64,000 nt of DNA, taken from positions 96,001 to 160,000 of the forward strand of contig CAVTRY010000016.1 of the NCBI GenBank assembly GCA_963737265.1. Reading direction: 5' to 3'. Positions 21,513 to 47,392 of the stretch are shown one piece after another (the stretch's first letter is position 1; each line of letters opens with the position of its first letter). The notes beneath the pieces were generated by a model. That model saw only the letters and a list, made by a program, of their open reading frames with translations. It was not told where the DNA came from and ran no database searches. This stretch comes from an uncultured delta proteobacterium (GTDB lineage Bacteria; Myxococcota_A; Polyangia; Fen-1088). Made by a program: the position numbers and the translations under genes.

Positions 21513-23252
21513 CGCATCGTGAAAGAGGTGCAAGGCGAAGACACCGTGGAAAGCGCCTTCGACCTGCTCGGCCTGCGCAGCCGCATGAAGACCAGCAAGG
21601 GGCACGTGCTGGAGATCGAGCGCAACCTCGTCGGCGACGTAGTGGGCATGAAGGCCGGCGGCGGCCCGGTTGCACCAGGTAGCGCGCCCGCCGCGCAGGC
21701 CGCCCTGCCACCCTGGGAAGCCCGCTTCACCCGCGATCAGCTTGGTCTAGAGGTCGAGCGCACCTTGCCCGGCGGCGTGCGAGCCCGCTGGGAGCGCGAC
21801 AGCGTCGGCCGCCCCGTCAAGCACGAGATCTGGTCTGGCACCACGATGGTGTCCGCCCAGTCCTACACCTGGGAGCCCAACGACCGTCTCAAGATGATCA
21901 TCGATGCCCTCAAGGGCCCCGTGCAGTACCGCCACGACGGCCTGGGCAACCTGATCGGCGCAGCCTACGCCGACGACAAGATCGACCTGCGCATGCCCGA
22001 CGCCGTCGGCAACCTGTTCAAGACCACCGACAAGAAAGACCGCAAGTACGGCCCCGCCGGCCAACTGCTGGAATCGCGCGGCCCCGACGGCGTCACGAAG
22101 TACGAGTACGACCCCGAAGGCAACCTAGCCAAGAAGATCCTGCCCGACGGCGGCGAGTGGAAATACGAGTGGAGCGGCGCCGGCATGCTGGCCAAGGTCA
22201 TCCGCCCCGACGGCAAGACGGTAGAATTCGGCTACGACGCCCTCGGCCGCCGGGTCTGGAAGAAATACGGCGCCAAGACCACCAAGTGGATCTGGGACGG
22301 CAACGTCCCCGTGCACGAATGGGTCGAGGTGGATCCGTCCGTGGAAGCCCCGCCGTCGCAGCAAGAAGCCGTGGAATGGGAAACCGGGCTGACCGCCCGC
22401 AAATTCATGCTGACCAAGCGCTTCGCGCAAGGTCCCCCCTTGTCCGATCCCCTCTCCCACTGGGAGAGGGCTAGGGTGAGGGAAAATGCGACGGGAACAG
22501 CCGCCGCCCCCATCACCTGGGTTTTCGAGCCCGAGTCTTTCGCCCCCCTCGCCAAACTGACCGCCACCGAGCGCTTCGGCATCGTCACCGACCACCTCGG
22601 CACACCCACCGCGATGATCGACGAGCGGGGGAAGACGGTGTGGGGTGCGGACATCGGTGTGTACGGCGACTTGCGAAACGTCGTCGGTGAGAAGGCGGCG
22701 TGTCCGTTTAGGTGGCCCGGGCAGTACGAGGACGAAGAGACGGGGCTGTATTACAACCGGTTCCGGTATTACGACCCGGGGGCAGGGGAGTATGCCAGCC
22801 AGGATCCGATTGGGTTGCGCGGAGGATTTCACTTCGCATCGTATGCGAACGATCCTCTGACGCTCACGGACCCATTGGGTCTGAGCTGCTTGCCACCTGA
22901 TCCTGAGGTTGCCGATGCAATTGCATCGGGACGCCCCATCGTCGTGGTTGGCAGACGCATGTCACGCGTTGATCCCGTTCGCGATGCACTTCGCGCGGCA
23001 GGTGCAAACGTGGAGACATATGAGCCCCGCATTTTCCGTTCCACACCGGCCGCGGTCAATCCGAAGGACGTCAAGGCAAATCGACAATGGATAAGGTATT
23101 GGGCCAAGGACAAGAAGGCGCTTGTCGTTGATATAGGCCATGATCCGAAAGCTCCAGCCGACTCCTCACCGTTCTACGACGTCGAACGGCGAAGCTTGTA
23201 CAACAACTGGAAGGGTGATGTTGACGTTGTTCAATTCGATCCAGGGTTCTGA
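21513..23252 (+). CDS. Rhs cassette 1 (5'-truncated core + toxin family A)
   Basis: YD repeats, RWPGQYEDEETGLYYNRFRYYDP, DPIGL..DPLGL cleavage motif, then a lower-GC tip. Confidence 0.92.
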   Translation, partial: RIVKEVQGEDTVESAFDLLGLRSRMKTSKGHVLEIERNLVGDVVGMKAGGGPVAPGSAPAAQAALPPWEARFTRDQLGLEVERTLPGGVRARWERDSVGRPVKHEIWSGTTMVSAQSYTWEPNDRLKMIIDALKGPVQYRHDGLGNLIGAAYADDKIDLRMPDAVGNLFKTTDKKDRKYGPAGQLLESRGPDGVTKYEYDPEGNLAKKILPDGGEWKYEWSGAGMLAKVIRPDGKTVEFGYDALGRRVWKKYGAKTTKWIWDGNVPVHEWVEVDPSVEAPPSQQEAVEWETGLTARKFMLTKRFAQGPPLSDPLSHWERARVRENATGTAAAPITWVFEPESFAPLAKLTATERFGIVTDHLGTPTAMIDERGKTVWGADIGVYGDLRNVVGEKAACPFRWPGQYEDEETGLYYNRFRYYDPGAGEYASQDPIGLRGGFHFASYANDPLTLTDPLGLSCLPPDPEVADAIASGRPIVVVGRRMSRVDPVRDALRAAGANVETYEPRIFRSTPAAVNPKDVKANRQWIRYWAKDKKALVVDIGHDPKAPADSSPFYDVERRSLYNNWKGDVDVVQFDPGF

Positions 23253-23254
23253 AC

Positions 23255-23761
23255 ATGAGCGATGATATGCTGACCCAGATCAAGAGGCGCTTCGGTGACT
23301 CTGTCGAGTCAAGTTTCTCCTTTCTCGAAACTGACTTTGCTTTCTCCAAGTGCGGGCTTCAAGAGCTTGACCTCTCTGACATACGCGATGCCACCCTACA
23401 CTGCCGCTTTCTTCTCGCGACGATTCAAATTGAGGTGAGATTGGGCCTCGCCATCCTTCAGCCGGGCGTGTACATTCGGCAATTTCGACACTCAGCTGAA
23501 TGCTCCGTGGATGCGGCAACTACAGTGATTGTACTGGAGCAGTTTGCGCTATCCCGTCGGCTCATTCTGAAGCCACCTCTGCCATGGATGCACACATTGA
23601 CCTTCTATGATGAGGCTGCAAAGTCCTATCGACGCTTCGCCAAGAACATGTCTTTGCACCTTGAGGAGGCAGTTCGGTATCTCGGAGGGTTACTTTTTGC
23701 CCTAACCCCTGAGCTTCTGGCAGAGCTGCACGTGGTTCTGACCAAGGGCAGTTCGCGTTGA
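23255..23761 (+). CDS. Putative immunity protein, family A
   Basis: Starts 2 nt after the toxin stop, lower GC, similar by eye to 23926, 27313 and 45104. Confidence 0.78.
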   Translation: MSDDMLTQIKRRFGDSVESSFSFLETDFAFSKCGLQELDLSDIRDATLHCRFLLATIQIEVRLGLAILQPGVYIRQFRHSAECSVDAATTVIVLEQFALSRRLILKPPLPWMHTLTFYDEAAKSYRRFAKNMSLHLEEAVRYLGGLLFALTPELLAELHVVLTKGSSR

Positions 23762-23785
23762 CACCACCATTCGCGCGCCGCATGA

Positions 23786-23923
23786 GGAGCACTGGTTGTT
23801 GACATCGGCGACAATCCCAATCCGAAGGTAGGCCCATCTCCATTCTACGACCTAGAAAAGCGCAGCCTCTACAACAACTGGGCGGGAGATGCGGACGTAG
23901 TAAAGCATGATCCAGGCTTTTAG
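23786..23923 (+). pseudogene. Orphan toxin-tip remnant, family A (45 aa)
   Basis: GALVVDIGDNPNPKVGPSPFYDLEKRSLYNNWAGDADVVKHDPGF*, homologous to the end of cassette 1; preceded by an in-frame TGA. Confidence 0.88.
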
Positions 23924-23925
23924 AG

Positions 23926-24399
23926 ATGAAATCGACATCATCAGTAGACTTGGCGCCGCTACGCAAAAGGTTTTCCAGTTCAATCGAGAACCACTTCCGA
24001 CCCGCACTCGAACGGATTGGGTATTGCTACTGTGGAATCTCTATTGTGGATGCGGATGACCCGCGAGAGACAGGCCTAGTAGCGCGATTCATTCGCGGGC
24101 AGATTGCCATCACCGTTGGCATTCATTCCGTGGCCCTAACAGTATTGGTGGCAAGGAACGAGTACCCCGCAGCTGCCACCTGCGACGAATCCCAGCCACC
24201 GATTCGAGTCATTTCGCTCGAAAGCATCGCCAGCCCTGCGCCCGCAAAGGTTATCTTTCCAAGTTGGTTGCGGCACAGGTCCTTGTCCGAAGAGGCGATG
24301 GCCTCTTTCGCGAGGTTCTGGCGAAAAATGGACAGTCATTTCGATGAAGCCTTTGAGTACCTGGCCAAGCGAGCATGTCAAACGCCCGACTTCCTATGA
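23926..24399 (+). CDS. Orphan immunity protein, family A
   Basis: Follows the toxin remnant; clear paralog of 27313-27771 (LRxRF..IExHF..GY..CGI..RFIR..HFDEAFxYLAxRA..TPxFL). Confidence 0.82.
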   Translation: MKSTSSVDLAPLRKRFSSSIENHFRPALERIGYCYCGISIVDADDPRETGLVARFIRGQIAITVGIHSVALTVLVARNEYPAAATCDESQPPIRVISLESIASPAPAKVIFPSWLRHRSLSEEAMASFARFWRKMDSHFDEAFEYLAKRACQTPDFL

Positions 24400-24751
24400 T
24401 TTCCCCTGGGGTGGTGCCGACCGAAGGTAATTTCTGTCGCCACCGCTGTCCGGAAACCGCGCGTGGGTGGTGTGCGTGGGTGGTGCGGGTGGTGCGCTTG
24501 GGTGGTGCGCTTGGGTGGTGCCAGAGTTTTCCTGGTGAACATCTCCCCGCGCTTGGGTGGTTCCAGAGTTTTCCTGGTGAACATCCCAACATCCCCGACC
24601 GAAGGTAATTTCTGTCGCCACCGCTGTCCGGAAACCGGACAATCTCGGCGTCATGAAGTAGCATTTCGCCGTGCCACTGGCGACTTCCGCGTTCCTGCTG
24701 CTCTTGACGTCGAGCGGTGTTGCCCTGGCATGCCCCGAGAACGCGGGGACT
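24400..24751 (+). mobile_element. Minimal junction element E0 (repeats + leader, no transposase)
   Basis: (CGCTT)GGGTGGTG tandem units, GGTGCCAGAGTTTT motif, a direct repeat of about 42 bp (24417/24595), and a diverged copy of the CCGGACAA..TGAAGTAGCAT..CCCGAGAAC leader. Confidence 0.7.
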
Positions 24752-27289
24752 GTGCCCGCGCCCGAGGCCGAGGCCTTCGTCGAGTACATCCGCTACGACT
24801 ACTCGCCCGAGGGCGACCTGGTCGCCACCACCGATGTCCTTGGGCGCGCCGCCAGCCTCAGCGCGGCCAAGCGCATGGTCGGCTTCACCGACCCGGCCAG
24901 CGGACAGACGACGCTGGAATACGACCGCCAGGGGTTGCTGGTCGGGATGCGCATGCCGAACGGGGCGCAGACGCGCTGGCGCTACGACCGCCTCGGCCGC
25001 TGCATCGAGGCCATCGACACCAAGGGCAACCGCGAGCGGCGCGAATTCGATCTGGCCGGCCACATCCTGCGCGTCGACGTCCCCGACGGCAACGTGCGCA
25101 AGCTCGGCTACGATGCCGAAGGCAACGTGGTGGCGGTCAAGGACCAGCACTACGACGTGAGGTTCGCCTACCAGGGCATGGGCCGCCTGGCCTCGCGCAC
25201 GCAAGAAGGCACCACGGTCGCGTTCGAGTACGACAGCGAAGAATCATTGGTGGCCATCCACAACGAAGCCGGCGCCGTGTACCGCTTCACCCTGGACAAG
25301 GCCGGCAACGTCAAGGAAGAGAGCGGCTTCGACGGACTTCTGCGCAAATACGGCCGCGACAAGGCCGGCCGCGTGCTGACCGTCGAGCGGCCCGACGAGC
25401 GCGCGACTGAGTACAGCTACGACACCGGCGGCCGCGTGGTCGCGGTCAAGTACAGCGACGGCACAGGTGAAGAGTACGGCTACCGCCCCGACGGTGCCTT
25501 GATGGCGGCGATCAATGCCGCCGCCGCGGTCAAATTCGAGCGCGATGCCCTGGGCCGCATCGTGAAGGAAGTTCAAGGCGAAGACACCGTGGAAAGCGCC
25601 TTCGACCTGCTCGGCCTGCGCAGCCGCATGAAGACCAGCAAGGGGCACGTGCTGGAGATCGCGCGCAACCTCGTCGGCGACGTAGTGGGCATGAAGGCCG
25701 GCGGCGGCCCGTTGGCACCAGGTAGCGCGTCCGCCGCGCAGGCCGCCCTGCCGCCTTGGGAAGCCCGCTTCACCCGCGATCAGCTTGGTCTAGAGGTCGA
25801 GCGCACCTTGCCCGGCGGCGTGCGAGCCCGCTGGGAGCGCGACAGCGTCGGCCGCCCCGTCAAGCACGAGATCTGGTCCGGCACCACGATAGTGTCCGCC
25901 CAGTCCTACACCTGGGAGCCGAACGACCGCCTCAAGATGATCGTCGACGCCCTGCGCGGCCCCGTGCAGTACCGCCACGACGGCCTGGGCAACCTGATCG
26001 GTGCGGCCTACGCCGACGACAAGATCGACCTGCGCATGCCCGACGCCGTCGGCAACCTGTTCAAGACCACCGACAAGAAAGACCGCAAGTACGGCCCCGC
26101 CGGCCAGCTATCGGAATCGCGCGGCCCCGACGGCGTCACGAAGTACGAATACGACCCCGAAGGCAACCTAGCCAAGAAGATCCTGCCCGACGGCGGCGAG
26201 TGGAAATACGAGTGGAGCGGCGCCGGCATGCTGGCCAAGGTCATCCGCCCCGACGGCAAGACGGTAGAATTCGGCTACGACGCCCTCGGCCGCCGGGTCT
26301 GGAAGAAATACGGCGCCAAGACCACCAAGTGGATCTGGGACGGCAACGTCCCCGTGCATGAATGGGTCGAGGTGGATCCGTCCGTGGCAGCTCCGCCATC
26401 GCAGCAAGAAGCCGTGGAATGGGAAACCGGGCTGACCGCCCGCAAATTCATGCTGACCAAGCGCTTCGCGCAAGGTCCCCCCTTGTCCGATCCCCTCTCC
26501 CACTGGGAGAGGGCTAGGGTGAGGGAAAATGCGACGGGAACAGCCGCCGCCCCCATCACCTGGGTTTTCGAGCCCGAGTCTTTCGCCCCCCTCGCCAAAC
26601 TGACCGCCACCGAGCGCTTCGGCATCGTCACCGACCACCTCGGCACACCCACCGCGATGATCGACGAGCGGGGGAAGACGGTGTGGGGTGCGGACATCGG
26701 TGTGTACGGCGACTTGCGAAACGTCGTCGGTGAGAAGGCGGCGTGTCCGTTTAGGTGGCCCGGGCAGTACGAGGACGAAGAGACGGGGCTGTATTACAAC
26801 CGGTTCCGGTATTACGACCCGGGGGCAGGGGAGTATGCCAGCCAGGATCCGATTGGGTTGCGCGGAGGATTTCACTTCGCATCGTATGCGAACGATCCTC
26901 TGACGCTCACGGACCCATTGGGTCTGAGCTGCTTGCCACCTGATCCTGAGGTTGCCGATGCAATTGCATCGGGACGCCCCATCGTCGTGGTTGGCAGACG
27001 CATGTCACGCGTTGATCCCGTTCGCGATGCACTTCGCGCGGCAGGTGCAAACGTGAAGACATATGAGCCCCGCAATTTCCGTTCCAAGACCTCCTTGGAC
27101 CCGAAGGACGTGGAGGCAAATCGAGAGTGGATCAGGTATTGGTCCAAGAAGAAGGGAGCATTGGTCGTTGACATAGGAAATGATCCCGACCCCACAACCA
27201 CACCGTCGGCATTCTATGAAGTCGAAAAGAGGAGTCTCGGAAGCTGGGCTCCTGATGTCGACGTCGTGAAATTCAATCCGGGATTCTAG
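24671..27289 (+). CDS. Rhs cassette 2 (leader-fused, internally deleted; toxin family A variant)
   Basis: Leader joins an internal rhs position (VPAPEAEAF); in-frame deletion at about 24850 relative to cassettes 3/4; intact core and DPLGL. Confidence 0.9.
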   Translation: MPLATSAFLLLLTSSGVALACPENAGTVPAPEAEAFVEYIRYDYSPEGDLVATTDVLGRAASLSAAKRMVGFTDPASGQTTLEYDRQGLLVGMRMPNGAQTRWRYDRLGRCIEAIDTKGNRERREFDLAGHILRVDVPDGNVRKLGYDAEGNVVAVKDQHYDVRFAYQGMGRLASRTQEGTTVAFEYDSEESLVAIHNEAGAVYRFTLDKAGNVKEESGFDGLLRKYGRDKAGRVLTVERPDERATEYSYDTGGRVVAVKYSDGTGEEYGYRPDGALMAAINAAAAVKFERDALGRIVKEVQGEDTVESAFDLLGLRSRMKTSKGHVLEIARNLVGDVVGMKAGGGPLAPGSASAAQAALPPWEARFTRDQLGLEVERTLPGGVRARWERDSVGRPVKHEIWSGTTIVSAQSYTWEPNDRLKMIVDALRGPVQYRHDGLGNLIGAAYADDKIDLRMPDAVGNLFKTTDKKDRKYGPAGQLSESRGPDGVTKYEYDPEGNLAKKILPDGGEWKYEWSGAGMLAKVIRPDGKTVEFGYDALGRRVWKKYGAKTTKWIWDGNVPVHEWVEVDPSVAAPPSQQEAVEWETGLTARKFMLTKRFAQGPPLSDPLSHWERARVRENATGTAAAPITWVFEPESFAPLAKLTATERFGIVTDHLGTPTAMIDERGKTVWGADIGVYGDLRNVVGEKAACPFRWPGQYEDEETGLYYNRFRYYDPGAGEYASQDPIGLRGGFHFASYANDPLTLTDPLGLSCLPPDPEVADAIASGRPIVVVGRRMSRVDPVRDALRAAGANVKTYEPRNFRSKTSLDPKDVEANREWIRYWSKKKGALVVDIGNDPDPTTTPSAFYEVEKRSLGSWAPDVDVVKFNPGF

Positions 27290-27312
27290 GGATGTGATAC
27301 GTGGGCTCGCCT

Positions 27313-27771
27313 ATGGATGAATTGGAAAAACTGCGCGAAAGGTTCGCAATCGCAATCGAGCGCCATTTCACGCCCATCCTGGTAGGGATGGGATACTCTC
27401 AATGCGGTATCGTTCTCCTAGAGGTAGAAGAAAGGCGCGATACCGCGTTACGAACCCGCTTCATCCGCGACCGCGTCGCCATCGAAGTTGGCATTCTGTG
27501 CGTCGGTTTAACCGTGCGCGTGACGCGCAGTGAGTTTCTCACGCAGGCAACATGCGATTCTCATCAGCGGCCTTTTCGAGGAGTAAGTCTCGAACAAATC
27601 CCATCGGCAGGTACTCAGGCCTCTCGACCCCTTCGATGGATGCGACACCCGACTCTTGAAGAAGAGGCACTTGCATCGTTCACTAGGTTTGAACGAAACA
27701 TGAACGCCCATTTTGATGAGGCGTTTGCCTATCTAGCCGAACGGGCCAAGTCCACGCCCGGATTTCTTTGA
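27313..27771 (+). CDS. Putative immunity protein, family A
   Basis: Directly downstream of toxin 2; paralog of 23926-24399. Confidence 0.82.
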   Translation: MDELEKLRERFAIAIERHFTPILVGMGYSQCGIVLLEVEERRDTALRTRFIRDRVAIEVGILCVGLTVRVTRSEFLTQATCDSHQRPFRGVSLEQIPSAGTQASRPLRWMRHPTLEEEALASFTRFERNMNAHFDEAFAYLAERAKSTPGFL

Positions 27772-27836
27772 CCATGGGTCCACTTTCCGTGTCTGAGTCG
27801 ATTCCTATTGCATCCCCAACCGAAGTTGCATTTTGT

Positions 27837-28874
27837 CGCTTGGGTGGTGCCAGGGTCTTTCTGAAAACGGGACGAACGCTTGGGTGGTGCCAGGGTCTTT
27901 CTGACAACGGGACGAACGGCGTCCGAGATCGCCAGCGTTCGAGCGGATAGCGGACAAGGGCGAGGGTCAGGACGGCGGTTTTGTCGTGAAACCTGGCGGT
28001 TTCGAGCTGTCCAGGGCCAAGAGCGAGGCGGCGGAAGAGTGAGCCTCCATGCGCCGGCACACGCCGGACAGACCTGTTCCTTCTCTGCCGGCGGTCCAGT
28101 CCAATCACCACGAATCGAGACCTGCCCCGTCAGGCCGGTGCGTTGAACGGCAAGGCCGGCGGGAAAGCCCCGAGGGGAAACATCTCCCTGATCTCGCGGG
28201 CGCGGTCGCGCAGGCGCAGGGCTCCGGCGCGGAATGCGTCGACGAAGGCACGGTAGCGGATACGGAATTCCTGCTCCGTCGAGTCGTCGCTTGCGTGGAC
28301 GAAAGGTGCCGGGCTGCGATCGGTGGTTGTGGGCTTTGCGTGCGGATCTTGGGCGAGGATGGCGGCGACACCCATGGGAGACCGCCCCTTCTCCTTGTTT
28401 TCGGCCTCGGCCGTGGCCTGGATCTCGCCGACGATGCGGCGGCACTCGGCCTCACCACGTGGGGAGCCGGCCAGCTTTGCTGGCCGCGTACCATCGCGGG
28501 AAGGTTTGGAAACACTCCTAGGGTTTCCAAGTCAGAATCGGTCGGCGGTCAGGTGTTCCAGGCAGGGCAATGGAGTGAGCTCGAACGTCGAAGGTGGTCG
28601 CGAACTGCGACGGGAACACGGTCTCGCCACGCTGGCGGGTAAGAAACTCGGCGCTCCTGTCGAACCAGGTGCCACGCAGAATCTCGCCGGAGTGGCTGCG
28701 GCATGCCGGACTATCGGCAAGGGAAGGCGCAAAGTTGCCCCCGCCGACCTGACCCCGGACAACCTCCGCGTTCTGAAGTAGCATCTCGCCGTGCCTGTGG
28801 CGACGACCTCGATCCTGCTGCTCGTGGCGTTGAGCGCTGCTGCCCCGGCACGCCCCGAGAACGAAAGGACTGGC
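27837..28874 (-). mobile_element. Junction element E1: repeats + internally deleted Y1/HUH transposase (28130-28704) + leader
   Basis: Near-identical to E2 but lacks about 430 bp including the HUH and Tyr motifs; carries the 90-bp structured insert and a +1 A. Confidence 0.85.
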
Positions 28875-32843: not shown

Positions 32844-33199
32844 AGTCCGAGCCGGTGCGATGTTGGCCTATTTCGCTCATAGATTCCGCCGGACGACCGG
32901 AAGACGGCCATTGGATCGCATACCCAGAGGACAATCAGGGACATGACTTGATCATTTGCACGAGCTGTGGACACCTTTATGCAGTCAATGTTGCCAGAAT
33001 GGTTTACCTAGGTCCTCCGCTAGAGGAGAAGCTGAAGGTGCTTCTCTGCATGCAGTGCGGCGCGCCACTGAGCCGCACAGCAAGTGCATACCCAGAGACT
33101 TTTCGAGATAGGACCGGTGCGCTAAAGACCTGCGCACGCCCCCGTGAAATGCCGGCCGATGATCAGAGTGTGGTTCGAGATTTTGATCAGCTTTACTGA
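32840..33199 (+). CDS. Putative immunity protein with a zinc ribbon
   Basis: ATGA overlap with toxin 3; CTSC and CMQC. Confidence 0.8.
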   Translation: MKSEPVRCWPISLIDSAGRPEDGHWIAYPEDNQGHDLIICTSCGHLYAVNVARMVYLGPPLEEKLKVLLCMQCGAPLSRTASAYPETFRDRTGALKTCARPREMPADDQSVVRDFDQLY

Positions 33200-39416: not shown

Positions 39417-40260
39417 GGGGTGGTGCCGCTTGGGTGGTGCCGCTTGGGTGGTGCGCTTGGGTGGTGCCAGGGTCTTTCTGAAAACGGGACGAACGGCGTC
39501 CGGTGCGCTTGGGTGGTGCCAGGGTCTTTCTGAAAACGGGACGAACGGCGTCCGAGATCGCCAGTATTCGAGCGGATAGCGGACAAATGCGAGGGTCAGG
39601 ACGGCGGTTTTGTCGTGAAACCTGGCGGTTTCGAGCTGTCCAGGGCCAAGAGCGAGGCGGCGGAAGAGTGAGCCTCCATGCGCCGGCACACGCCGGACAG
39701 ACCTGTTCCTTCTCTGCCGGCGGTCCAGTCCCGGTCCAGTCCAATCACCACGAATCGAGACCAGCCCCGTCAGGCCGGTGCGTTGAACGGCAAGGCGCCG
39801 CTTGGGTGCGCCGCTTGGGTGCCAGGGTCTTTCGCGCCGCTTGGGTGCCAGGGTCTTTCGCGAGACGCCGTGGGTGGTGCCCGTGGGTGGTGCCAGGGTT
39901 TTTCTGAAAACGACAAGGCCCGTGGGTGGTGCCAGGGTTTTTCTGAAAACGACAAGGCGGTGCGCGGGGGTGGTGCCAGGGTCTTTCTGAAAGCTGGAGG
40001 AACGCTTGGGTGGTGCCGGGGTCTTTCTGAAAACGGGACGAACGGCGCGGGGATGGTGCCGCGGGGGTGGTGCCAGGGTCTTTCTGAAAGCTGGAGGAAC
40101 GCTTGGGTGGTGCCAGGGTCTTTCTGAAAACGGGACGCACGGCGTCCGAGATCGCCAGTGTTCGAGCGGATAGCTGTCGCTTGGGTGGTGCCAGGGTCTT
40201 TCTGAGGAGCTAAAGGAACGCTTGGGTGGTGCCAGGGTCTTTCTGAAAACGGGACGAACG
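39417..40260 (+). repeat. Large array of left-anchored direct repeats
   Basis: About 18 starts of CG(C/T)..GGGTGGTGCC(AGGGTCTTTCTGAAAACGGGACGAACGGCGTCC), units 13 to about 290 bp, all in one orientation. Confidence 0.92.
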
Positions 40261-41155
40261 GCGTCCGAGATCGCCAGCGTTCGAGCGGATAGCGGACAAG
40301 GGCGAGGGTCAGGACGGCGGTTTTGTCGTGAAACCTGGCGGTTTCGAGCTGTCCAGGGCCAAGAGCGAGGCGGCGGAAGAGTGAGCCTCCATGCGCCGGC
40401 ACACGCCGGACAGACCTGTTCCTTCTCTGCCGGCGGTCCAGTCCAATCACCACGAATCGAGACCTGCCCCGTCAGGCCGGTGCGTTGAACGGCAAGGCCG
40501 GCGGGAAAGCCCCGAGGGGAAACATCTCCCTGATCTCGCGGGCGCGGTCGCGCAGGCGCAGGGCTCCGGCGCGAAAAGCGTCGACGAAGGCACGGTAGCG
40601 GATACGGAATTCCTGCTCCGTCGAGTCGTCGCTTGCGTGGACGAAAGGTGCCGGGCTGCGATCGGTGGTTGTGGGCTTTGCGTGCGGATCTTGGGCGAGG
40701 ATGGCGGCGACACCCATGGGAGACCGCCCCTTCTCCTTGTTTTCGGCCTCGGCCGTGGCCTGGATCTCGCCGACGATGCGGCGGCACTCGGCTCGGCGGT
40801 GGTCAGCCGTCAGGTGTTCCAGGCACGGCAATGGAGTGAGCTCGAACGTCGAAGGTGGTCGCGAACTGCGACGGGAACACGGTCTCGCCACGCTGGCGGG
40901 CAAGAAACTCGGCGCTCCGGTCGAACCAGGTGTGAAGTGGACCCCTTTGGTAGGACCAGAAATGGCCCGAGCTAAGAGAGAGTCCGCGTGGGTTTGTTTG
41001 TAGATCCGGGTGAGCCTCGCCGGCAAGGAAATTGTTGAGAGCGGAGGCATGCTGATGGCTGCTGTCCACGGATGCAATGCGCGCACGGCCCCACAGAAGC
41101 AGGTGAACGCGTTGCAGTTGTGGGCAGCGTGCCATCAGCATGATGCAGCGGCGAT

Positions 41156-41992
41156 TTAGGCGGCCTCTTTCATCGCCGACTTCTTTAGTTCGAATTCGTA
41201 AAACGCTACGGGTGTCTGAAATCCAAGGGTTTGGTGAGGCCGCCTGTGGTTGTACTTGTCCAGGTAGATCGCGATGCCACTGCGGGCGTCGGCCACGTCT
41301 CGGTAGTCGTTCAAGTAGACCTCCTCGCATTTGACAGACCGCCATAGACGCTCGACGAAGATGTTGTCCATGAATCGGCCGCGACCGTCCATGCTGACCT
41401 TTACGCCCTTGTCCAGCAAAACCGATGTGAAGTTGTCGTCGGTAAACTGCGACCCCTGGTCGGTGTTGAAGATCTCCGGCAAGCCGAAGTTCGCAAGAGC
41501 TTCTTCCACGACCTCGATGCAAAAACGGCTGTCCATCGTGTTTGAAATGCGCCAGGACAGAACCCGGCGCGTGTACCAATCCATCACGGCGACCAGGTAG
41601 CAATGCCCCTGTCTCGTCGGGATGTACGTGATATCCGAGGCCCACACCTGATTGGGCCGAATGATCGCGAGATGGCGCAGCAAGTACGGGAATTTCGTAT
41701 GTTCCGGCGCGGGGACGGTCGTCCGTGGTTTGGGCGCCAGCGCTTCGATGCCCATGATTCGCATCAGTCTCTGCACCCGTTTGCGATTCACCGTCTGCCC
41801 CTGTGCCTTTAGCAACCGTGACAGCTTCCGGCTGCCGAATGCTGGCAATTCGAGATGCAGCTTGTCCAGCTCCTTGCAGATGGCCAGATCTTCCTCTGCC
41901 ATCGGCATCGGCTCCCAGTAGATGCCCGATCTCGCAAGATTCAGCAGCTCGCACTGCCGACGGACAGATAGGTCGTTGTGGGGCTCGATCAT
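41156..41992 (-). CDS. IS3 transposase OrfB (DDE)
   Basis: PNQVWASDITYI, FNTDQGSQF, DNIFVERLWRSVKCE, YNHRRPHQTL. Confidence 0.95.
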   Translation of the reverse strand: MIEPHNDLSVRRQCELLNLARSGIYWEPMPMAEEDLAICKELDKLHLELPAFGSRKLSRLLKAQGQTVNRKRVQRLMRIMGIEALAPKPRTTVPAPEHTKFPYLLRHLAIIRPNQVWASDITYIPTRQGHCYLVAVMDWYTRRVLSWRISNTMDSRFCIEVVEEALANFGLPEIFNTDQGSQFTDDNFTSVLLDKGVKVSMDGRGRFMDNIFVERLWRSVKCEEVYLNDYRDVADARSGIAIYLDKYNHRRPHQTLGFQTPVAFYEFELKKSAMKEAA

Positions 41993-42006
41993 GGCGCGCT
42001 TCTCCG

Positions 42007-42300
42007 TCAGCGAATGCGCGCGAGCCCGCGTGCTAAAAAATCATTCTCCAGCGTCAGCTGCCCCACCTTGCGCAGCAATTCCGATTCGCGTTCGGCGTTC
42101 GCCGATTCCTCTGCATTTGCATGGCCTGGTTCGAAAACCATGGCCAGCCGTGTGACGGCTTCCTTCTTCCACTTGTGAACCAGGTTCGGGTTGATCTTGT
42201 ATCGGCGCCCGATCTCCACAACCGTTGCCTGCTCCCGCATGGCTTCGAGAGCTACCTGCGCCTTGAAGAGTGCTGTGTGCTTTTGGCGGTTCGTTTTCAT
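42007..42300 (-). CDS. IS3 transposase OrfA
   Basis: HTH FKAQVALEA..VHKWK, zipper VGQLTLENDFL; slippery TTTTTTA at 42034-42040. Confidence 0.92.
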   Translation of the reverse strand: MKTNRQKHTALFKAQVALEAMREQATVVEIGRRYKINPNLVHKWKKEAVTRLAMVFEPGHANAEESANAERESELLRKVGQLTLENDFLARGLARIR

Positions 42301-42921
42301 CGTGTCCTGCCTCGTTGTTGAGGCGGACTACACCTTAGCTCCTGGTCCCATTTTTGGGGTCCACTTCAGTGCCACGCAGAATCTCGCCGGTGGTGAGGGC
42401 CGCGACGCAATTGGGACCCGGCCACGCGCCAGCAGACCCGACCAGGCCCTCCTTCGCGCCGTGGGCCAAGATGTATCGAAGGCGCGCGTGCGCGGCCCTT
42501 TCGTCGGCGACGACGATGGAGCGGTAGCGGCGAGACCACAGGCGCTCGCGCCACAGATAGAGCCGCCCCGCCTCCTTGGCGACGTTGGCATTCACGAACT
42601 GCATGAAAAGCGCGAGTTGACCGGCGCTGGCCGGCGAGAGGAGAAAATGGGCATGCGTGGAAAGGAATACGAAGGCATGGATGGTCATGCCGTAGAGAGA
42701 CTGGGCCTTGCCGATCACGCCGAGGACGATGGCGGTAAGCTCGGGCGAGGGCTTGAGTAGCAGCCTTCCCTGCAACGTACGGGTGGTGATCTCGACGACG
42801 GAGCGCTCGGGGATGAAACGGAGTGGCCGCAGCATACCGGACTATCGGCAAGGAAAGGCGCAAAGTTGCCCCCGCTGACCTGACCCCGGACAACCTCCGC
42901 GTTCTGAAGTAGCATCTCGCC

Positions 42922-45102
42922 GTGGCTGCGGCGACAACCTCGATCTTGCTGCTCCTGGCTTTGAGCGGTGCCGCCCCATCATGCCCCAAGAATGAAAGGA
43001 CTGGCCGCGAGGCTGGTACCAGAATTTTTCTCGGCGGAGTCTATCGCGAGGCTGGTGCCAGAGTTTTTCTCGGCGGCGCCATCTATCGGTTCAAACTGGA
43101 TGCCGCTGGCGATGTCGCGGAAGAATGCGGCTTCGACGGACTTTTGCGCAAATACGAGCGCGACCTGGCCGGCCGAGTGAAGAAGGTTCTGCGCCCAGGG
43201 GCGAGATTCTCCGAATACGGTTACGATCCAGCCGGCCGAGTGGTCGCCGTCAAGCACAGCGACGGCAGCGAGGAGCAGTTCGCGTACCGCCCCGATGGCG
43301 CCATGATCCAAGCCGGGAACGCCAACGGCGTACTAGCGCTAGAGCGCGATCTGCTCGGCCGCCTGGTGCGGGAAGGCCAGGACGGCCACTTCGTCGAGAG
43401 CCAGTACGACCTGCGCGGCCTGCGCAGCCGCATGACTTCGTCGTTCGGACACGTGCAGGAAATCGAACGCAACGTGATGGGCGACGTGACCGCCATCCGC
43501 GCCGGGGGCGGCTACCTGGCGCCCAAGGACGCGGGCGAGGCGGCGAAGCCCGCGGACATGTTCGAAGCGCGCTTCACCCGCGATCAGCTGGGCCAAGAGC
43601 TGGAGCGCACCCTGCCCGGTGGTGTACGCAGCCGCTGGGAGCGCGACAAGCTGGGCCGCCCCGTGAAGCACGAAGTGTGGTCGGGAAACAAAGCCATCGC
43701 CGCTTGGGCCTACACCTGGGACGTGAACGACCGCCTGCGCATGGTCGTCGACGCGCTCAAGGGCCCCGTCAGCTACGAGCACGATGCTTTCGGCAACCTG
43801 GCCAAAGCCGTCTATGCCGACGGCCAAGTCGACCTGCGCATGCCCGACGCCGTCGGCAACCTGTTCAAGACCACCGACAAGAAAGACCGCAAGTACGGCC
43901 CCGCCGGCCAGCTATTGGAATCGCGGGGCGCCGACGGCGTCACGAAGTACGAATACGACCCCGAAGGCAATCTCGCCAAGAAGATCCTGCCCGACGGCAG
44001 CGAGTGGAAGTACGAGTGGAACGGCGCCGGCATGCTGGCCAAGGTCGTTCGCCCCGACGGCAAGACGGTAGAATTCGGCTACGACGCCCTCGGCCGCCGG
44101 GTCTGGAAGAAATACGGCGCCAAGACCACCAAGTGGATCTGGGACGGCAACGTCCCCGTCCACGAGTGGGTCGAGGTGGATCCGTCCGTGGAAGCTCCGC
44201 CGCCGCAGCAAGAAGCCGTGGAATGGGAAACCGGGCTGACCGCCCGCAAGTTCATGCTGACCAAGCGCTTCGCGCAAGGTCCCCCCTTGTCCGATCCCCT
44301 CTCCCACTGGGAGAGGGCTAGGGTGAGGGAAAATGCGACGGGAACAGCCGCCGCCCCCATCACCTGGGTCTTTGAGCCCGAAAGCTTCGCTCCCCTCGCC
44401 AAGCTAACCGCCATCGCAAGGTTCGTCATCGTCACCGACCACCTCGGCACGCCCACCGCCATGCTCGACGAGCGGGGGAAGGCGGTGTGGTCCGCCGACA
44501 TCGGCGTGTACGGCAACTTGCGAAACGTCGTCGGCGAGAAGGCGGCGTGTCCGTTTAGGTGGCCGGGGCAATACGAGGACGAAGAGACGGGGCTGTATTA
44601 CAACCGGTTCCGGTACTACGACCCGGGGGCGGGGGAGTATGTCAGTCAGGATCCGATTGGGCTCCGCGCAGGACTCCAATTTGCATCGTACGCCAGAGAT
44701 CCGTTGGCCCATATAGATCCGTTGGGCCTCAGCTGCGTGCCACCTGATCCTGAGGTTGCCGATGCAATTGCGTCTGGACGACCGATCGTAGTTGTCGGCC
44801 GCAGCATGGGACGGGTTGGGCCGGTTGCCGATGCGATTCGGGCAGCGGGAGGGGATGTGAAGACATACAATCCCAGAAACTTCCGTACTACGCCTGGCAA
44901 TATCGAGCCGAAGGACGTGGCGGCGAATCGGTCATGGCTCAAGTATTGGGCAAAGGATCGGAACGCATTGATTGTCGATATCGGATACGACCCCGCCAAA
45001 CCAGGAGTCGCGGGGCCGTTCTACGGCGTAGAACGGGCGTCCCTATACAAGAACTGGGCGTCCGATGGCGTCGACGTTGTTCCGTACAACCCCGGATTCT
45101 AA
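42922..45102 (+). CDS. Rhs cassette 5 (leader + repeat fused to a mosaic core; toxin family A variant)
   Basis: 43072-43830 is a diverged rhs paralog, then the common core; DPLGL followed by SCVPPDPEVADAIASGRPIVVVGR..YNPGF. Confidence 0.9.
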   Translation: MAAATTSILLLLALSGAAPSCPKNERTGREAGTRIFLGGVYREAGARVFLGGAIYRFKLDAAGDVAEECGFDGLLRKYERDLAGRVKKVLRPGARFSEYGYDPAGRVVAVKHSDGSEEQFAYRPDGAMIQAGNANGVLALERDLLGRLVREGQDGHFVESQYDLRGLRSRMTSSFGHVQEIERNVMGDVTAIRAGGGYLAPKDAGEAAKPADMFEARFTRDQLGQELERTLPGGVRSRWERDKLGRPVKHEVWSGNKAIAAWAYTWDVNDRLRMVVDALKGPVSYEHDAFGNLAKAVYADGQVDLRMPDAVGNLFKTTDKKDRKYGPAGQLLESRGADGVTKYEYDPEGNLAKKILPDGSEWKYEWNGAGMLAKVVRPDGKTVEFGYDALGRRVWKKYGAKTTKWIWDGNVPVHEWVEVDPSVEAPPPQQEAVEWETGLTARKFMLTKRFAQGPPLSDPLSHWERARVRENATGTAAAPITWVFEPESFAPLAKLTAIARFVIVTDHLGTPTAMLDERGKAVWSADIGVYGNLRNVVGEKAACPFRWPGQYEDEETGLYYNRFRYYDPGAGEYVSQDPIGLRAGLQFASYARDPLAHIDPLGLSCVPPDPEVADAIASGRPIVVVGRSMGRVGPVADAIRAAGGDVKTYNPRNFRTTPGNIEPKDVAANRSWLKYWAKDRNALIVDIGYDPAKPGVAGPFYGVERASLYKNWASDGVDVVPYNPGF
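43006..43075 (+). repeat. Two variant motif copies at the rhs breakpoint
   Basis: CGCGAGGCTGGT(A/G)CCAGA(A/G)TTTTTCTCGGCGG twice, read in frame as REAGxRxFLGG. Confidence 0.8.
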
Positions 45103-45103
45103 A

Positions 45104-45608
45104 ATGGAAAAGCTGGTTTCTTCCTTCAATGAAATCTTCACCAAGACAGCGCTCGAACGCGTTCTCGTTCCTTGTCAAGAGAAGAGACTTTGAATTCTGC
45201 GACGTTTGGCATGATCGGAATGCCGACCCACGTGATCTTGAGACAAAGATCCGTTATCGGAGTCCACGAGTCTTCGTTGATATCGTCCTGACCGAGGTCG
45301 ATCTTGGACTCTTTGTCTTCGCATGGAGAATTCCAACGGGCGCTGCTCGCGGTGCGTGTTGGGCACTGCAGCCGACTGGTGTCGTGAACTTCGACCTATA
45401 CCTTCAAGATCACTTCGGGGATAGTCTTCCGCCGCTCTTCCTGGATTTGAAGAAGCCGATCTATTTGACAGAGATGTACAATCAACAGTCACGAAAATAC
45501 GCGCGACTCCTTGCGGCTCGACTGCCGGAGGCAATTCGAGGCACAGCAGGGCGTCTCGAGAAATACGGCAGGGAACTACTTGACGGCATCCCCTCTGCAT
45601 TCACGTAG
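45104..45608 (+). CDS. Putative immunity protein, family A (probable frameshift near 45155)
   Basis: ATG 1 nt after the toxin stop gives MEKLVSSFNEIFTKTAL; the homologous AFSFLV..FC..DPRD continues in another frame (alternative in-frame ATG at 45129). Confidence 0.68.
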
Positions 45609-45630
45609 AGTCTCGCTGTGGTCTTCATAG

Positions 45631-46932
45631 CGCTTGGGTGATGCGCTTGGGTGGTGCCAGGGTCTTTCGTGTCCTTCCGTGCTAGGTGCCCGTGCTAGGT
45701 GCCAGAGTCTTGATTAAGGCTTACGTCAGGACGGTGCGTGCTAGGTGCTGCGTGCTAGGTGCCAGAGTCTTGATTAAGGTTTGCGTCAGAACGGTCCCCC
45801 AAGTTCTGTACGGTCGAGTTGATTGAGACCTGATGGGAACTATCTGCCGCTTGGGTGGTGCCAGGGTCTTTCTGAAAACGCTTGGGTGGTGCGCTTGGGT
45901 GGTGCGCTTGGGTGGTGCCAGGGTCTTTCTGAAAACGCTTGGGTGGTGCCAGGGTCTTTCTGAAAACGGGACGAACGGCGTCCGAGATCGGCAGCGTTCG
46001 AGCGGATAGCGGACAAGGGCGAGGGTCAGGACGGCGGTTTTGTCGTGAAACCTGGCGGTTTCGAGCTGTCCAGGGCCAAGAGCGAGGCGGCGGAAGAGTG
46101 AGCCTCCATGCGCCGGTACACGCCGGACAGACCTGTTCCTTCTCTGCCGGCGGTCCAGTCCAATCACCACGAATCGAGACCAGCCCCGTCAGGCCGGTGC
46201 GTTGAACGGCAAGGCCGGCGGGAAAGCCCCGAGGGGAAACATCTCCCTGATCTCGCGGGCGCGGTCGCGCAGGCGCAGGGCTCCGGCGCGGAAAGCGTCG
46301 ACGAAGGCACGGTAGCGGACACGGAATTCCTGCTCCGTCGAGTCGTCGCTTGCGTGGACGAAAGGTGCCGGGCTGCGATGGGTGGTTGTGGGCTTTGCGT
46401 GCGGATCTTGGGCGAGGATGGCGGCGACACCCATGGGAGACCGCCCCTTCTCCTTGTTTTCGGCTTCGGCCGTGGCCTGGATCTCGCCGACGATGCGGCG
46501 GCACTCGGCCTCACCACGTGGGGAGCCGGCCAGCTTTGCTGGCCGCGTACCATCGCGGGAAGGTTTGGAAACACTCCTAGGGTTTCCAAGTCAGAATCGG
46601 TCAGCCGTCAAGTGTTGCAGGCACGGCAATGGAGTGAGCTCGACGTCGAAGGTGGTCGCGAACTGCGACGGGAACACGGTCTCGCCGCGCTGGCGGGCAA
46701 GAAACTCGGCGCTCCGGTCGAACCAGGTGCCACGCAGAATCTCGCCGGAGTGGCCGCGGCATGCCGGACTATCGGCAAGGGAAGGCACAAAGTTGCCCCC
46801 GCTGACCTGACCCCGGACAACCTCCGCGTTCTGAAGTAGCATCTCGCCGTGCCTGTGGCGACAACCTCGATCCTGCTGCTCGTGGCGTTGAGCGGTGCTG
46901 CCCCGGCATGCCCCGAGAACGAAAGGACTGGC
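45631..46932 (-). mobile_element. Junction element E4: repeats (two motif variants) + deleted transposase (46189-46762) + leader
   Basis: CGCTTGGGTGGTGCCAGGGTCTTT and CGTGCTAGGTGCCAGAGTCTTG arrays at 45631-45960; same internal deletion and insert as E1. Confidence 0.85.
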
Positions 46933-47392
46933 GCCGTCATGGGGCTCGTGGGAACGGCCACGACACCCAATGCCCTGGCCGCCGGCATGGCCGCGGCGCA
47001 AACCGCCGTCGATACCGCCAAGATGGCCGTCGCCGCCCTGATCCGGGCACGCCCCCGTGTATCGGCGCCATCTTGATGGGCACGCCCACGGTGCTCATCG
47101 GCGGCATTCCGCTGCCGCCCCTCGAAAACTGCGCGCGCGCCTTCTACATGAATCGGACACCATCTACCAGATGAACGCCGACAACGCGGTGGTGTCGGTC
47201 ACCGACGCGTTGGGCGCCGTCACCAAATACGAATTCGACGACTGCTACAACAAGGTCGCCGAAACCGACCCGCTCGACCACACCACCCGGTGGGCGTTCG
47301 ACGAACGGGGCAATTGCACCCAGGTCATGCACCCCAACGGCGCCGAGACTTCGCTTTTCTACGACGAGCGCAATGCGGTGATTCGCGCCGTT
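46849..47392 (+). pseudogene. Rhs cassette 6 remnant (N-terminal fragments only)
   Basis: Leader + PAAR-like fragment, frameshift at about 47040, large deletion at about 47152, homology ends at about 47391. Confidence 0.85.

Follow-up and report, generated by a model that had tools for sequence, protein, structure and literature searches.

Rhs polymorphic toxin/immunity array of a soil Myxococcota with a Y1-HUH element in its repeat unit

Results

Six rhs modules form a toxin/immunity array

The window, i.e. the whole 64,000-nucleotide stretch of DNA analysed here, contains an Rhs polymorphic toxin/immunity array from a soil Myxococcota genome, with a Y1-HUH element built into its repeat unit. 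The array comprises six rhs modules on the + strand (R0 to R5, 21345-47405) separated by five junctions (E0 to E4), and a domain search returned RHS_repeat and RHS core matches in all six modules. Downstream of each complete module lie one or two small ORFs, putative immunity genes, none of which matched a Pfam or NCBIfam family. The modules, with the family of their toxin tip (CT), and these small ORFs are as follows:

21345-23252, + strand: R0, 5'-truncated rhs (635-aa ORF) with RHS_repeat and RHS core; CT family A
23255-23761 and 23926-24399, + strand: two ORFs after R0, putative immunity genes by position only; the second is similar to I1
24671-27289, + strand: R1, 872 aa; CT family A
27301-27771, + strand: I1, putative immunity ORF
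28791-32843, + strand: R2, full-length rhs, 1350 aa, with DUF6531, RHS repeats and RHS core; CT family B
32840-33199, + strand: I2, putative immunity ORF, 119 aa
34861-38928, + strand: R3, full-length rhs, 1355 aa, with DUF6531; CT family C
38925-39410, + strand: I3, putative immunity ORF
42922-45102, + strand: R4, with a leader/core deletion at 43005/43074; CT family A
44934-45608, + strand: I4, putative immunity ORF overlapping the R4 end, true start uncertain
46908-47420, + strand: R5 fragment, with leader, rhs N-terminus, internal deletion (47152/47154) and core fragment

The repeat structure described in an earlier sequence-only reading of this locus is real, with six modules and motif repeats at all five junctions. 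The toxin tips are not all different, R0, R1 and R4 having one CT family. A homolog of I3 sits behind the matching CT in another metagenome-assembled genome (MAG), L016. On the left, the array begins at 21511, where the homology of R0 to R1 starts (21511-23250 versus 25554-27287, 94.3% identity); on the right, it ends where the R5 homology stops (47405), next to a motif-like GGTGCCA..GTCTTTC (47404).

The same reading held that the element always ends at a broken rhs 5' end, which does not apply to R2 and R3. True leader/core deletions are present in R1, where a leader and signal-peptide-like N-terminus are fused in frame to the core across two internal deletions (24752 and 24850), in R4, where the leader is followed by 28 codons, two in-frame motif-like units of ~39 bp (43006-43073) and the core from ~aa 685, and in R5. 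R2 and R3 are untruncated and align with each other from the leader on, thus 28874 and 34944 are not breakpoints. The identity of R2 to R3 ranges from 91 to 99% across 250-bp blocks, and the R4 core is 67-69% identical to R3 in one stretch and 94-96% in the adjoining one. The rhs cores are recombination mosaics, and recombination is active in the array.

Four of the five junctions carry pieces of one dead Y1/HUH gene

Repeats of GGTGCCAGRGTYTT are present on the + strand at every junction, in tandem units that contain GGTGCCAG(G/A)GT(C/T)TT (5/5) and begin ~60, 63, 110, 8 and 22 bp past the stop of the preceding ORF, in line with the ~110 bp first noted. All 26 motif matches within the array (up to 3 edits, for which the genome-wide background is 3.5e-5 per position and strand) lie on the + strand, confirming that the element has the same orientation throughout; their number varies from 2 to 12 per junction. 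As had also been read, E1 to E4 carry antisense pieces of one Y1/HUH gene and E0 has repeats and leader only:

24400-24670, + strand: E0 junction, with a 41-bp leader stub, motif units (24459-24597) and a full rhs leader; no HUH gene
27834-28790, - strand: E1, with two motif units (27834-27925, + strand), HUH remnant (28133-28709), then rhs leader
33200-33308, + strand: decayed rhs leader copy with ~30 bp of rhs 5' coding sequence, abutting the E2 motif array (from alignments)
33309-33693, + strand: E2 motif array, with units of 13 bp followed by a twice-repeated 180-bp unit
33770-34774, - strand: E2 HUH gene, N-terminal 200 aa open (34172-34774)
34775-34860, + strand: HUH-upstream/rhs-leader join at E2, with ~45 bp of HUH upstream sequence
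39418-40293, + strand: E3 motif arrays, periods of 13 to 119 bp, 12 matches to the 16-mer
40475-42835, - strand: E3 HUH gene, split by an IS3-family element, frameshifted near codon 185 and without the 81-bp insert
40933-42368, - strand: IS3-family insertion sequence in E3, 1436 bp, with an HTH_Tnp_1 ORF (42007-42300) and an rve ORF (41156-41992)
45631-46907, - strand: E4, with motif units (45650-45968, + strand), HUH remnant (46192-46749), then leader

The E0 units are 13-mers plus two GGTGCCAGAGTTTTC-type units, bracketed by a 41-bp direct repeat, and on their left side the motif arrays have different borders at all five junctions (leader stubs of ~0, 25, 41 and 115 bp). All four in-array HUH genes are pseudogenes, with lesions in common. 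The E1 remnant (aa ~141-307) has an 81-bp insert, a 428-bp deletion and a frameshift; E4 (aa ~149-307) has the insert and the identical deletion; and in E2 the insert, a hairpin-rich dispersed repeat placed in frame (~34091-34179), introduces a stop. This insert is common to E1, E2 and E4 and absent from E3 and from an intact copy elsewhere in the genome, C23. The HUH-to-leader junction is the same across E1 to E4 and C23, being near-identical in E2, E3 and C23, and is recognisably similar in L016, and the homology between the E1 and E4 copies continues into rhs (27837-29104 versus 45905-47152). Element copies are 98-99% alike, as against 80-96% for the rhs cores that they flank. The IS3-family element in E3, which has a 3-bp target duplication, is present in the genome as 20 full-length and 4 partial copies of at least 99.6% identity; this is a truly active IS, in contrast to the HUH element, whose copies from different loci differ by 4-17% in protein sequence.

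Such an array might in principle be an assembly artefact, its repeats collapsed or mis-joined, as the units are repeats of ~6 kb in a MAG with 7.6% contamination. We consider this very improbable: the units differ by 2-20% and have distinct CTs, lesions and an IS, a related array is present in another MAG (L016), and independent Logan contigs reproduce three specific joints, namely the R1 leader/core joint (as the loose end of a contig at 35824), that of the 431-bp deletion and a motif flank of the J4 type. The best of the runs may, however, be the source sample.

The element encodes a RAYT/TIRYT-like enzyme and is flanked by its own motif

The reconstructed length of 307 aa was borne out by two intact copies elsewhere in the genome, at C23:170311-171234 and C22:93220-94143, the former 96% identical to E2 over 198 residues. 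The protein matches NCBIfam REP_Tyr_transpos (E 2e-12), with scores under the NCBIfam and Pfam cut-offs; H61, H63 and Y121 do not vary among 29 sequences; and the best Foldseek match of its AF2 model (pLDDT 82.9) is 4er8_A, the E. coli RAYT (TMt 0.68), with ISDra2, IS608 and IS200 TnpA next in rank. The gene product is a RAYT/TIRYT-like Y1/HUH enzyme, in agreement with the RAYT-like assignment made from the sequence. Its C-terminal part of ~165 aa matched no family, HTH families included. Values of dN/dS of 0.09-0.15 in 7/7 pairs of intact copies point to strong purifying selection.

Among 105 full-length relatives, a sense-strand motif stands within 100 bp upstream in 34 of 100 loci and an antisense one at +200-300 downstream in 42 of 94; the opposite orientation is almost never seen. 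The element is normally a 307-aa gene flanked by inverted GGTGCCAGRGTYTT copies, the downstream ones at ~+240 bp and antisense. When mapped genome-wide, all 48 degenerate-core matches fall at three HUH loci, beside an HUH gene or in the array, with none scattered elsewhere; judged from this placement, the motif belongs to the HUH element.

Quentin et al (2018; PMC6006769) place RAYT (TnpAREP) proteins in class 2 of the Y1-HUH family. The present enzyme has the same Y1-HUH fold, in which HxH and a single catalytic Tyr are ~60 residues apart. As with RAYT genes, its gene has inverted copies of a motif of its own on both sides, is low in copy number and is under purifying selection. It differs in its length with the unmatched C-terminal part, in a motif that is not a dispersed palindromic REP and stands only beside the gene, often in tandem arrays, and in the several diverged copies and fragments per genome. 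The TIRYT (subclass 2.1) proteins of De Nocera et al, as cited in PMC6006769, are described there as RAYT-like enzymes with a C-terminal extension and inverted repeats instead of REP hairpins, with no dispersed REPs, as here. Among the differences, no HTH family was found in the C-terminus of our protein, and the TIR consensus reported for them, GGGG[AT][CG]A[CG], is not evident by eye in GGTGCCAGRGTYTT.

The rhs link recurs in a minority of related loci

The rhs link was found again in other MAGs. An rhs gene lies within 10 kb at 5 of 51 related loci in genomes and at 2 of 80 in metagenomes, and none does at the other 46 and 78. Most relatives are therefore not near rhs; still, rhs is the sole neighbour family to recur (4 loci, 7 of 107 ORFs) and the linked layout is constant: rhs, immunity, motif, antisense HUH. 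At C23, a block of 20 motifs, intact HUH, leader and rhs aa 1-160 coincides with a break of synteny with relatives. The closest MAG, L016, combines at least four rhs modules with a single HUH, and one of its junctions has a leader and no HUH. In L018, another MAG with an HUH of a different clade, a leader and a 50-aa rhs stub abut a motif array. The rhs-adjacent HUH copies are spread over at least two tree clades.

The divergent HUH-leader-rhs arrangement kept in the present genome, L016 and L024, together with the strong purifying selection on intact copies, could suggest that the gene is no mobile element but a domesticated rhs partner which, for instance, regulates the divergent rhs promoter. 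We regard this as improbable: 4/4 array copies are dead, L024 and L014 carry broken or truncated copies, rhs is missing next to most members of the family, and the family is patchy, with a match in 16 of 41 genomes of the taxonomic family.

Discussion

The HUH copies were probably multiplied together with the rhs unit

The sequence-only reading proposed that the HUH enzyme captures, duplicates or reorders the cassettes. Our results point the other way, and we favour, with some reserve, a single old insertion that homologous recombination copied together with the rhs unit, over shuffling driven by the element. One HUH copy would have been joined to an rhs leader in a single ancient event, which would leave it divergent from rhs and without its upstream motif. 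The block of motif array, HUH, leader, rhs, CT and immunity would then have been multiplied and reshuffled by host homologous recombination, through unequal crossing-over and gene conversion and with cores and CTs being replaced, while the HUH genes decayed. We infer this order of events, and recombination as its driver, from the comparisons above. By their common lesions, their common leader junction and a homology running into rhs, the in-array copies appear to have arisen by duplication, not transposition; this pattern matches tandem propagation of one ancestral insertion, the outcome that the earlier reading itself had named as contrary to its proposal. Because element copies are more alike than cores, a one-step tandem duplication is insufficient, and gene conversion or later core replacement is needed. 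Array building does not need HUH, as L016 has at least four modules and one HUH gene. Against copying stand the varied left borders, the motif-like copies at the R4 joint and the right border, the L018 stub, the two or more clades of rhs-adjacent HUH and the lack of an empty site found for the array or the C23 copy; the two intact paralogs, moreover, could act in trans.

Rhs orphan arrays reportedly arise via C-terminal displacement and recombination. The present array resembles them in that main rhs genes stand beside truncated modules and every module has a CT and immunity ORF of its own, and in conserved cores that are recombination substrates, here seen as mosaics. Unlike in orphan arrays, the truncated modules R1 and R4 keep a leader and signal-peptide-like start in an in-frame fusion, and the repeat unit includes a transposase pseudogene and an end-motif array.

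Motif copies coincide with some rearrangement joints

Exact coincidence with a motif copy is seen at several joints, among them the R4 leader/core joint, the right border of the array and one L018 joint. Since they coincide with several deletion/fusion joints, the motif arrays are probably break-prone: the intact C23 paralog may cut them in trans, or the G-rich tandem units may be intrinsically unstable. The position of the motif copies is compatible with cutting there, short of demonstrating it.

If an intact 307-aa HUH (the C23 or C22 copy) cut single-stranded DNA at the motif arrays in trans and so drove cassette deletion, duplication or capture, these arrays would be functional cassette boundaries. 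The exclusive association of the motif with HUH loci, the single orientation of the 26 array copies and the motif copies at the three joints above agree with such cutting, as do the variable left and fixed right motif borders, expected of element-mediated adjacent deletions, the C23 block at its synteny break, and the constant layout with rhs as sole recurring neighbour. However, we found no transposition footprint and no near-identical HUH copies at unrelated sites, and the in-array copies have common lesions and one junction. In addition, rhs is absent near most related loci, HUH stands at only one L016 array junction, the joints R1 24752 and 24850, R5 47152 and the 428-bp deletion are motif-free, and the independent Logan contigs, a weak test, gave no joints beyond those assembled. 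We therefore judge this mechanism unlikely.

Rather less likely still, the motif arrays would break on their own, their G-rich tandem units (GGGTGGTG...) slipping or recombining; the HUH remnants would then be passengers and no HUH enzyme would have a role. The wide variation in unit number (2 to 12 per junction, 20 at C23), the 41-bp direct repeat around the E0 array and the microhomology between rhs core and motif at the R4 joint fit this view. By contrast, the core motif is kept beside HUH genes in diverged genomes at a fixed distance and orientation, which points to protein recognition, and a 263-nt motif-bearing flank, compared with shuffles, shows no better folding on either of its strands (z 0.06 and 1.40).

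Other elements linked to gene capture or rhs

One-ended rolling-circle gene capture is carried out by IS91/ISCR elements, whose HUH proteins belong to another family with two catalytic tyrosines. By analogy, this appears to be the nearest known mechanism to the shuffling first proposed: both have a constant end, here the motif array 3' of the gene, and a variable other side, the C23 block ending inside rhs. The present enzyme differs in its single-Tyr IS200/RAYT fold, and we found no evidence of replicative spread. The E. coli rhs-associated H-repeat (ISAs1 family) is likewise an IS-type element habitually adjoining rhs genes; it has a DDE-type transposase and no motif arrays at cassette borders, whereas here an HUH enzyme is accompanied by motif arrays at those borders.

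Organization of the rhs array

Six rhs modules lie on the + strand at positions 21345–47405 of the window, within a source genome (G000; window at C16:96001–160000) of 6.55 Mb in 25 contigs; the window genes have their relatives in fen and soil MAGs of Myxococcota. The modules display the hallmarks of Rhs polymorphic toxins, namely RHS/YD repeats, an RHS core ending in DPxGL and a variable C-terminal tip (CT).

Modules of the array, all on the + strand
R0, 5'-truncated rhs module, 635 aa
R1, leader and signal-peptide-like start fused in frame to a shortened core, 872 aa
R2, full-length rhs with DUF6531, RHS repeats and RHS core, 1350 aa
R3, full-length rhs with DUF6531, RHS repeats and RHS core, 1355 aa
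R4, leader and signal-peptide-like start fused in frame to a shortened core, 726 aa
R5, rhs fragment

The sequence-only reading had taken R2 and R3 as broken and all tips as different; both genes are in fact full length, and the tips past the last DPxGL (119–125 aa) fall into three families among five modules, one common to R0, R1 and R4 and another for each of R2 and R3. No toxin family was recognised among the tips of these five modules. One or two small ORFs, none of known family, follow the CT of every complete module, and from this position we take them to be putative immunity genes; the third of them, I3, occurs together with its CT also in L016, an HUH locus of another MAG. The rhs cores are recombination mosaics, with R2/R3 identity of 91–99% in 250-bp blocks and R4/R3 identity of 67–69% across 36808–37557 vs 94–96% across 37808–38307. 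By eye, rhs N-termini are signal-peptide-like at 24671–24760, 28791–28880, 42922–43005 and 46908–47000, and those of R1, R4 and R5 have a Cys directly past the hydrophobic stretch; judged in the same manner, the N-termini hint at lipoprotein-type export rather than a PAAR/T6SS head. A second rhs locus of the genome (G000:C21:334559–355413) is unrelated, with 23–28% amino acid identity to R3 apart from one 115-aa stretch at 43%, and contains no HUH match.

The repeat unit that had been described across the array is essentially right. At all five junctions between modules (E0–E4), tandem units 13 to 180 bp long and containing GGTGCCAG(G/A)GT(C/T)TT begin 8–110 bp past the preceding stop, and the in-array matches to this motif (≤3 edits) are all on the + strand (26/26). 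At E1–E4 the antisense HUH gene comes next after the motif units, its start 86 bp from the following rhs start codon, and E0 consists of repeats and leader only, the leader being the sequence preceding the rhs start. The earlier description of E3 was incomplete, as it missed the following insertion:

40933–42368, IS3-family element of 1436 bp in E3, splitting the HUH gene; HTH ORF and rve integrase ORF, 3-bp target duplication

With 20 full-length and 4 partial copies genome-wide at ≥99.6% identity, this is a recently active IS with the look of current activity in G000. No Rfam family was found across 21000–48000.

The junction gene encodes a RAYT-like Y1-HUH protein

Two intact copies of the HUH gene are present on other contigs of the genome:

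C23:170311–171234, intact 307-aa HUH copy
C22:93220–94143, intact 307-aa HUH copy

Identification of the enzyme as RAYT-like Y1/HUH, proposed at first sight of the sequence, holds. The open N-terminal 200 aa of E2 (34172–34774, − strand) score 21.8 bits against Pfam Y1_Tnp (PF01797), just below the cut-off of 23, and 47.2 bits (E 2e−12) against NCBIfam REP_Tyr_transpos (NF047646), below the cut-off of 80. The intact 307-aa copies do not match PF01797 at E ≤ 0.001. Of 977 database relatives of the protein, almost all of the top 120 measure exactly 307 aa, with identity of ≥78%, and 7 of these 120 have a precomputed PF01797 match. In a 29-sequence alignment reaching down to 42% identity, the HUH motif (H61-A-H63) and Y121 are invariant. 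Y121, the single catalytic Tyr, sits 60 residues past H61; PMC6006769 gives about 58–67 residues from HUH to catalytic Tyr in Y1-HUH enzymes. A sequence search of the PDB with the family profile returned no match at E ≤ 1, so a fold search was needed. The AlphaFold model (pLDDT 82.9) is closest in Foldseek to 4er8_A, E. coli RAYT in complex with REP (TMt 0.68; 140 columns aligned at rmsd 2.7), followed by the ISDra2, IS608 and IS200 transposases (2xm3, 2vjv and 2f4f). Residues ~140 to 307 match no recognised family.

All seven pairs of intact copies compared give dN/dS of 0.09–0.15, indicating strong purifying selection. The family is patchy, with a match in 16 of the 41 genomes of the taxonomic family, and multiple diverged copies and fragments often occur within one genome. 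Three distant Y1-like matches, two of them adjacent, were also noted at G000:C11:692561–694224 and C14:307721–308170; at 22–24% identity to the HUH N-terminus, they may be other Y1-HUH families of this genome.

The motif belongs to the HUH element

We searched for GTGCCAGGGTCTT (≤2 mismatches) around 105 full-length HUH loci from MAGs and metagenomes. The sense-strand motif lies within 100 bp upstream of the gene in 34/100 loci, with further ones beyond, and the antisense-strand motif lies downstream at +200 to +300 in 42/94; motifs in the opposite orientation number at most one per distance bin. When GGTGCCAG[AG]GT[CT]TT was mapped over the whole of G000, all 48 matches fell at HUH loci: 43 belong to the array or lie 3' of the C23 gene, and the other 5 are found just upstream of the C22 gene. 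These orientation counts and genome-wide matches indicate that the HUH gene has inverted copies of its own motif on both sides, in the style of RAYT/TIRYT units, and bear out the earlier assignment of the motif to the transposase. The HUH copies of the window have the downstream-side motif only. A 263-nt motif-bearing flank folds no better than its shuffles (z 0.06 for the + and 1.40 for the − strand) and thus contains no REP-like structure. The largest motif array seen, 20 tandem units 3' of the intact gene, is at the C23 locus (L001, 11479–12206). The C23 gene itself is a recombinant, since its DNA matches E2 at 97% identity in the 5' half and at only 83% in the 3' half.

Association of the HUH family with rhs

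The sequence-only reading had asked whether HUH homologs are enriched for rhs neighbours. Within 10 kb, rhs is present at 5/51 HUH loci of species-representative genomes (L003, L014, L016, L018 and L024, from 4 MAGs), at least 2.5 kb of downstream sequence being available for 41/51, and at 2 of the best 80 metagenome loci, 36 of which have that much downstream sequence. Among 107 flanking ORFs from 33 full-length loci, RHS_repeat is the commonest family (6 ORFs), followed by PIN (3), and Rhs forms the sole homology cluster of more than two ORFs; neither an accessory tnpB (IS605 group) nor any other recurring neighbour family was found among them. Where HUH and rhs occur together, the order never varies: rhs, CT, small ORF, motif, antisense HUH. 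In the HUH phylogeny, copies next to rhs require at least two origins or several losses. The association thus stands in that Rhs is the only recurring neighbour and the layout is constant, but it is confined to a minority of loci (5/51 and 2/80), and it is inflated by kinship among MAGs.

Origin of the HUH copies within the array

The in-array copies share lesions. An 81-bp in-frame insert that adds a stop codon (about 34091–34179 in E2) is common to E1, E2 and E4 and absent from E3 and the C23 copy; it is a hairpin-rich dispersed repeat with 18 matches in G000 (blastn-short; DNA fold z −3.5). This repeat family is often tandem in the genome with ~84-bp spacing, REP/MITE-like and distinct from the HUH motif. 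E1 and E4 carry one identical 428-bp deletion removing the catalytic N-terminus, E1 is also frameshifted, and the E3 gene, beyond its IS3 split, has a frameshift near codon 185. Across the stretch leading from the HUH start into the rhs leader, E2, E3 and C23 are near-identical and L016 retains a recognisable similarity; these copies are devoid of the family-typical upstream motif. Homology between in-array copies also extends into rhs. Because insert, deletion, junction, missing upstream motif and homology into rhs are shared, we trace the in-array copies to one HUH-to-leader joining and conclude that they multiplied within a larger block and not by transposition. The joining apparently predates the divergence from L016 (dS 0.54 between HUH genes). 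E1 had been considered a clean insertion into the leader; this was dropped, as the upstream motif is absent and the border, of the junction type J2, looks common to L016.

L016 comprises at least four rhs modules and only one HUH, plus one junction with a leader and no HUH; arrays of this type therefore form without the HUH element. HUH copies within genomes are 72–92% identical in DNA, and those at three G000 loci 83–96% in protein; near-identical copies at unrelated sites, the mark of recent transposition in IS200/IS605, were found neither in G000 nor within the genomes of relatives. Active cassette shuffling by the HUH enzyme, the central proposal of the sequence-only reading, is not supported for this array, whose copies share lesions and one junction to the leader. 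We consider that a single old insertion was probably carried along by homologous recombination and decayed in place, with the motif arrays as preferred breakpoints.

Joints at the motif arrays

The breakpoint role of the motif arrays is suggested by several joints. The left edge of the arrays differs at every junction (leader stubs of ~0, 25, 41 and 115 bp) and the right edge is fixed. In R4, the leader and 28 codons are joined to the core via two in-frame motif-like units (43006–43073), and rhs homology in R5 stops at 47405 against GGTGCCA..GTCTTTC, the right border of the whole array. Motif matches (≤3 edits) outside HUH loci number 457, i.e. 3.5e−5 per position and strand, so that chance placement at two chosen joints is unlikely, with the reservation that these joints were picked out post hoc. 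L018 carries an HUH of another clade, and there a leader and 50-aa rhs stub continues straight into a motif array. The HUH element copies are 98–99% alike, more than the adjoining rhs cores. Purely passive carriage leaves these observations unaccounted for, and they fit break-prone motif arrays, which an intact paralog might cut in trans or which might be intrinsically unstable.

Under the first of these, an intact RAYT/TIRYT-like paralog acting in trans would cut GGTGCCAGRGTYTT arrays at Rhs cassette borders and so produce deletions anchored at motifs, in-frame fusions of leader to core, and block transfers. The clearest candidate for such a transfer is the C23 unit, in which the 20 motifs, the intact HUH, a leader and rhs codons 1–160 form a block where synteny with relatives breaks. 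However, the joints of R1 (24752 and 24850) and R5 (47152) and the 428-bp deletion carry no motif, and we regard cutting in trans as rather unlikely.

Relation to known systems

The family shares with the Y1-HUH (IS200/IS605-RAYT) superfamily the HUH motif, the single Tyr and the catalytic fold, with a PF01797 score below the gathering cut-off. As in RAYTs, the gene is flanked by inverted copies of its repeat, but the motif is not a palindromic REP dispersed at high copy and is confined to HUH loci. IS91/ISCR transposases are Rep-like HUH enzymes with two catalytic tyrosines, in contrast to this single-Tyr IS200/RAYT fold. RAYT-like subclasses with long C-terminal domains and without REPs, as well as TIRYTs, flanked by inverted repeats, are described in Quentin et al, 2018 (PMC6006769); by comparison with those descriptions, they are the nearest described kind. 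The HUH gene has an inverted flanking motif; the TIR consensus of TIRYTs (subclass 2.1), GGGG[AT][CG]A[CG], is not evident by eye, and a profile search matched no HTH family in the HUH C-terminus, where TIRYTs have an HTH domain. We found no description of an rhs-RAYT coupling in the literature searched, whose scope ended short of subscription journals; in the portions available, one study (10.1101/2024.07.17.603846) treats Rhs and RAYT as separate topics and another (PMC6329079) merely lists IS families. The locus combines an Rhs orphan array with a RAYT/TIRYT-like element.

The diversification of Rhs and other polymorphic toxin loci is attributed to homologous recombination at conserved cores, and the cellular role of RAYT-like enzymes is still debated. 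Here is a lineage with a transposase element and its end-motif arrays built into the rhs repeat unit, in which multiple truncations and fusions terminate exactly at motif arrays. If the motif is the site cut by the enzyme, this would point to a novel way in which toxin cassettes turn over and give RAYT-like enzymes a new function; if cutting in trans is true, polymorphic toxin loci in Myxococcota would owe diversity to a single-strand transposase that has been domesticated. If the enzyme does not cut the motif, the locus is still a clean case of a defunct mobile element carried as a passenger by an orphan array, and even then a 307-aa Y1-HUH family, widespread and strongly conserved in soil and fen Myxococcota and Acidobacteriota, receives a first description here along with its flanking motif.

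Assembly and flanking DNA

The assembly was compared with Logan contigs of three soil runs belonging to a single study (26, 5 and 2 pieces, giving thin coverage of parts of 31000–36500). They reproduce the 428-bp deletion joint, the R1 leader/core joint and a motif flank of the junction type J4, and they lend the assembly weak support; the Logan contigs show no joint absent from it within the parts covered, the best run being possibly the source sample and contigs dropping rare variants. The left flank of the array (19500–21510) has no DNA match in 12 same-genus genomes, and the right flank matches same-genus genomes only from the methyltransferase outward. Near the C23 copy, the synteny with relatives jumps to G000 contig C22, and tblastx detects no immunity-like or rhs-like sequence beyond the motif array of that locus. 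Matching loci without array or element that would define insertion borders were not found among the relatives compared, for either the array or the C23 copy. A left border cutting a CBS-domain gene, an idea obtained by eye, was dropped as Pfam is empty for that ORF. GC content is 0.60–0.63 at 17000–21000 vs 0.65–0.70 elsewhere, and a variable island may reach beyond the rhs array on its left side. A second dispersed repeat, ~125 bp long, lies at about 48559–48688, between the methyltransferase and ammonium-transporter genes; it has at least nine copies in G000 and many in same-genus genomes, including 87-bp tandem arrays.
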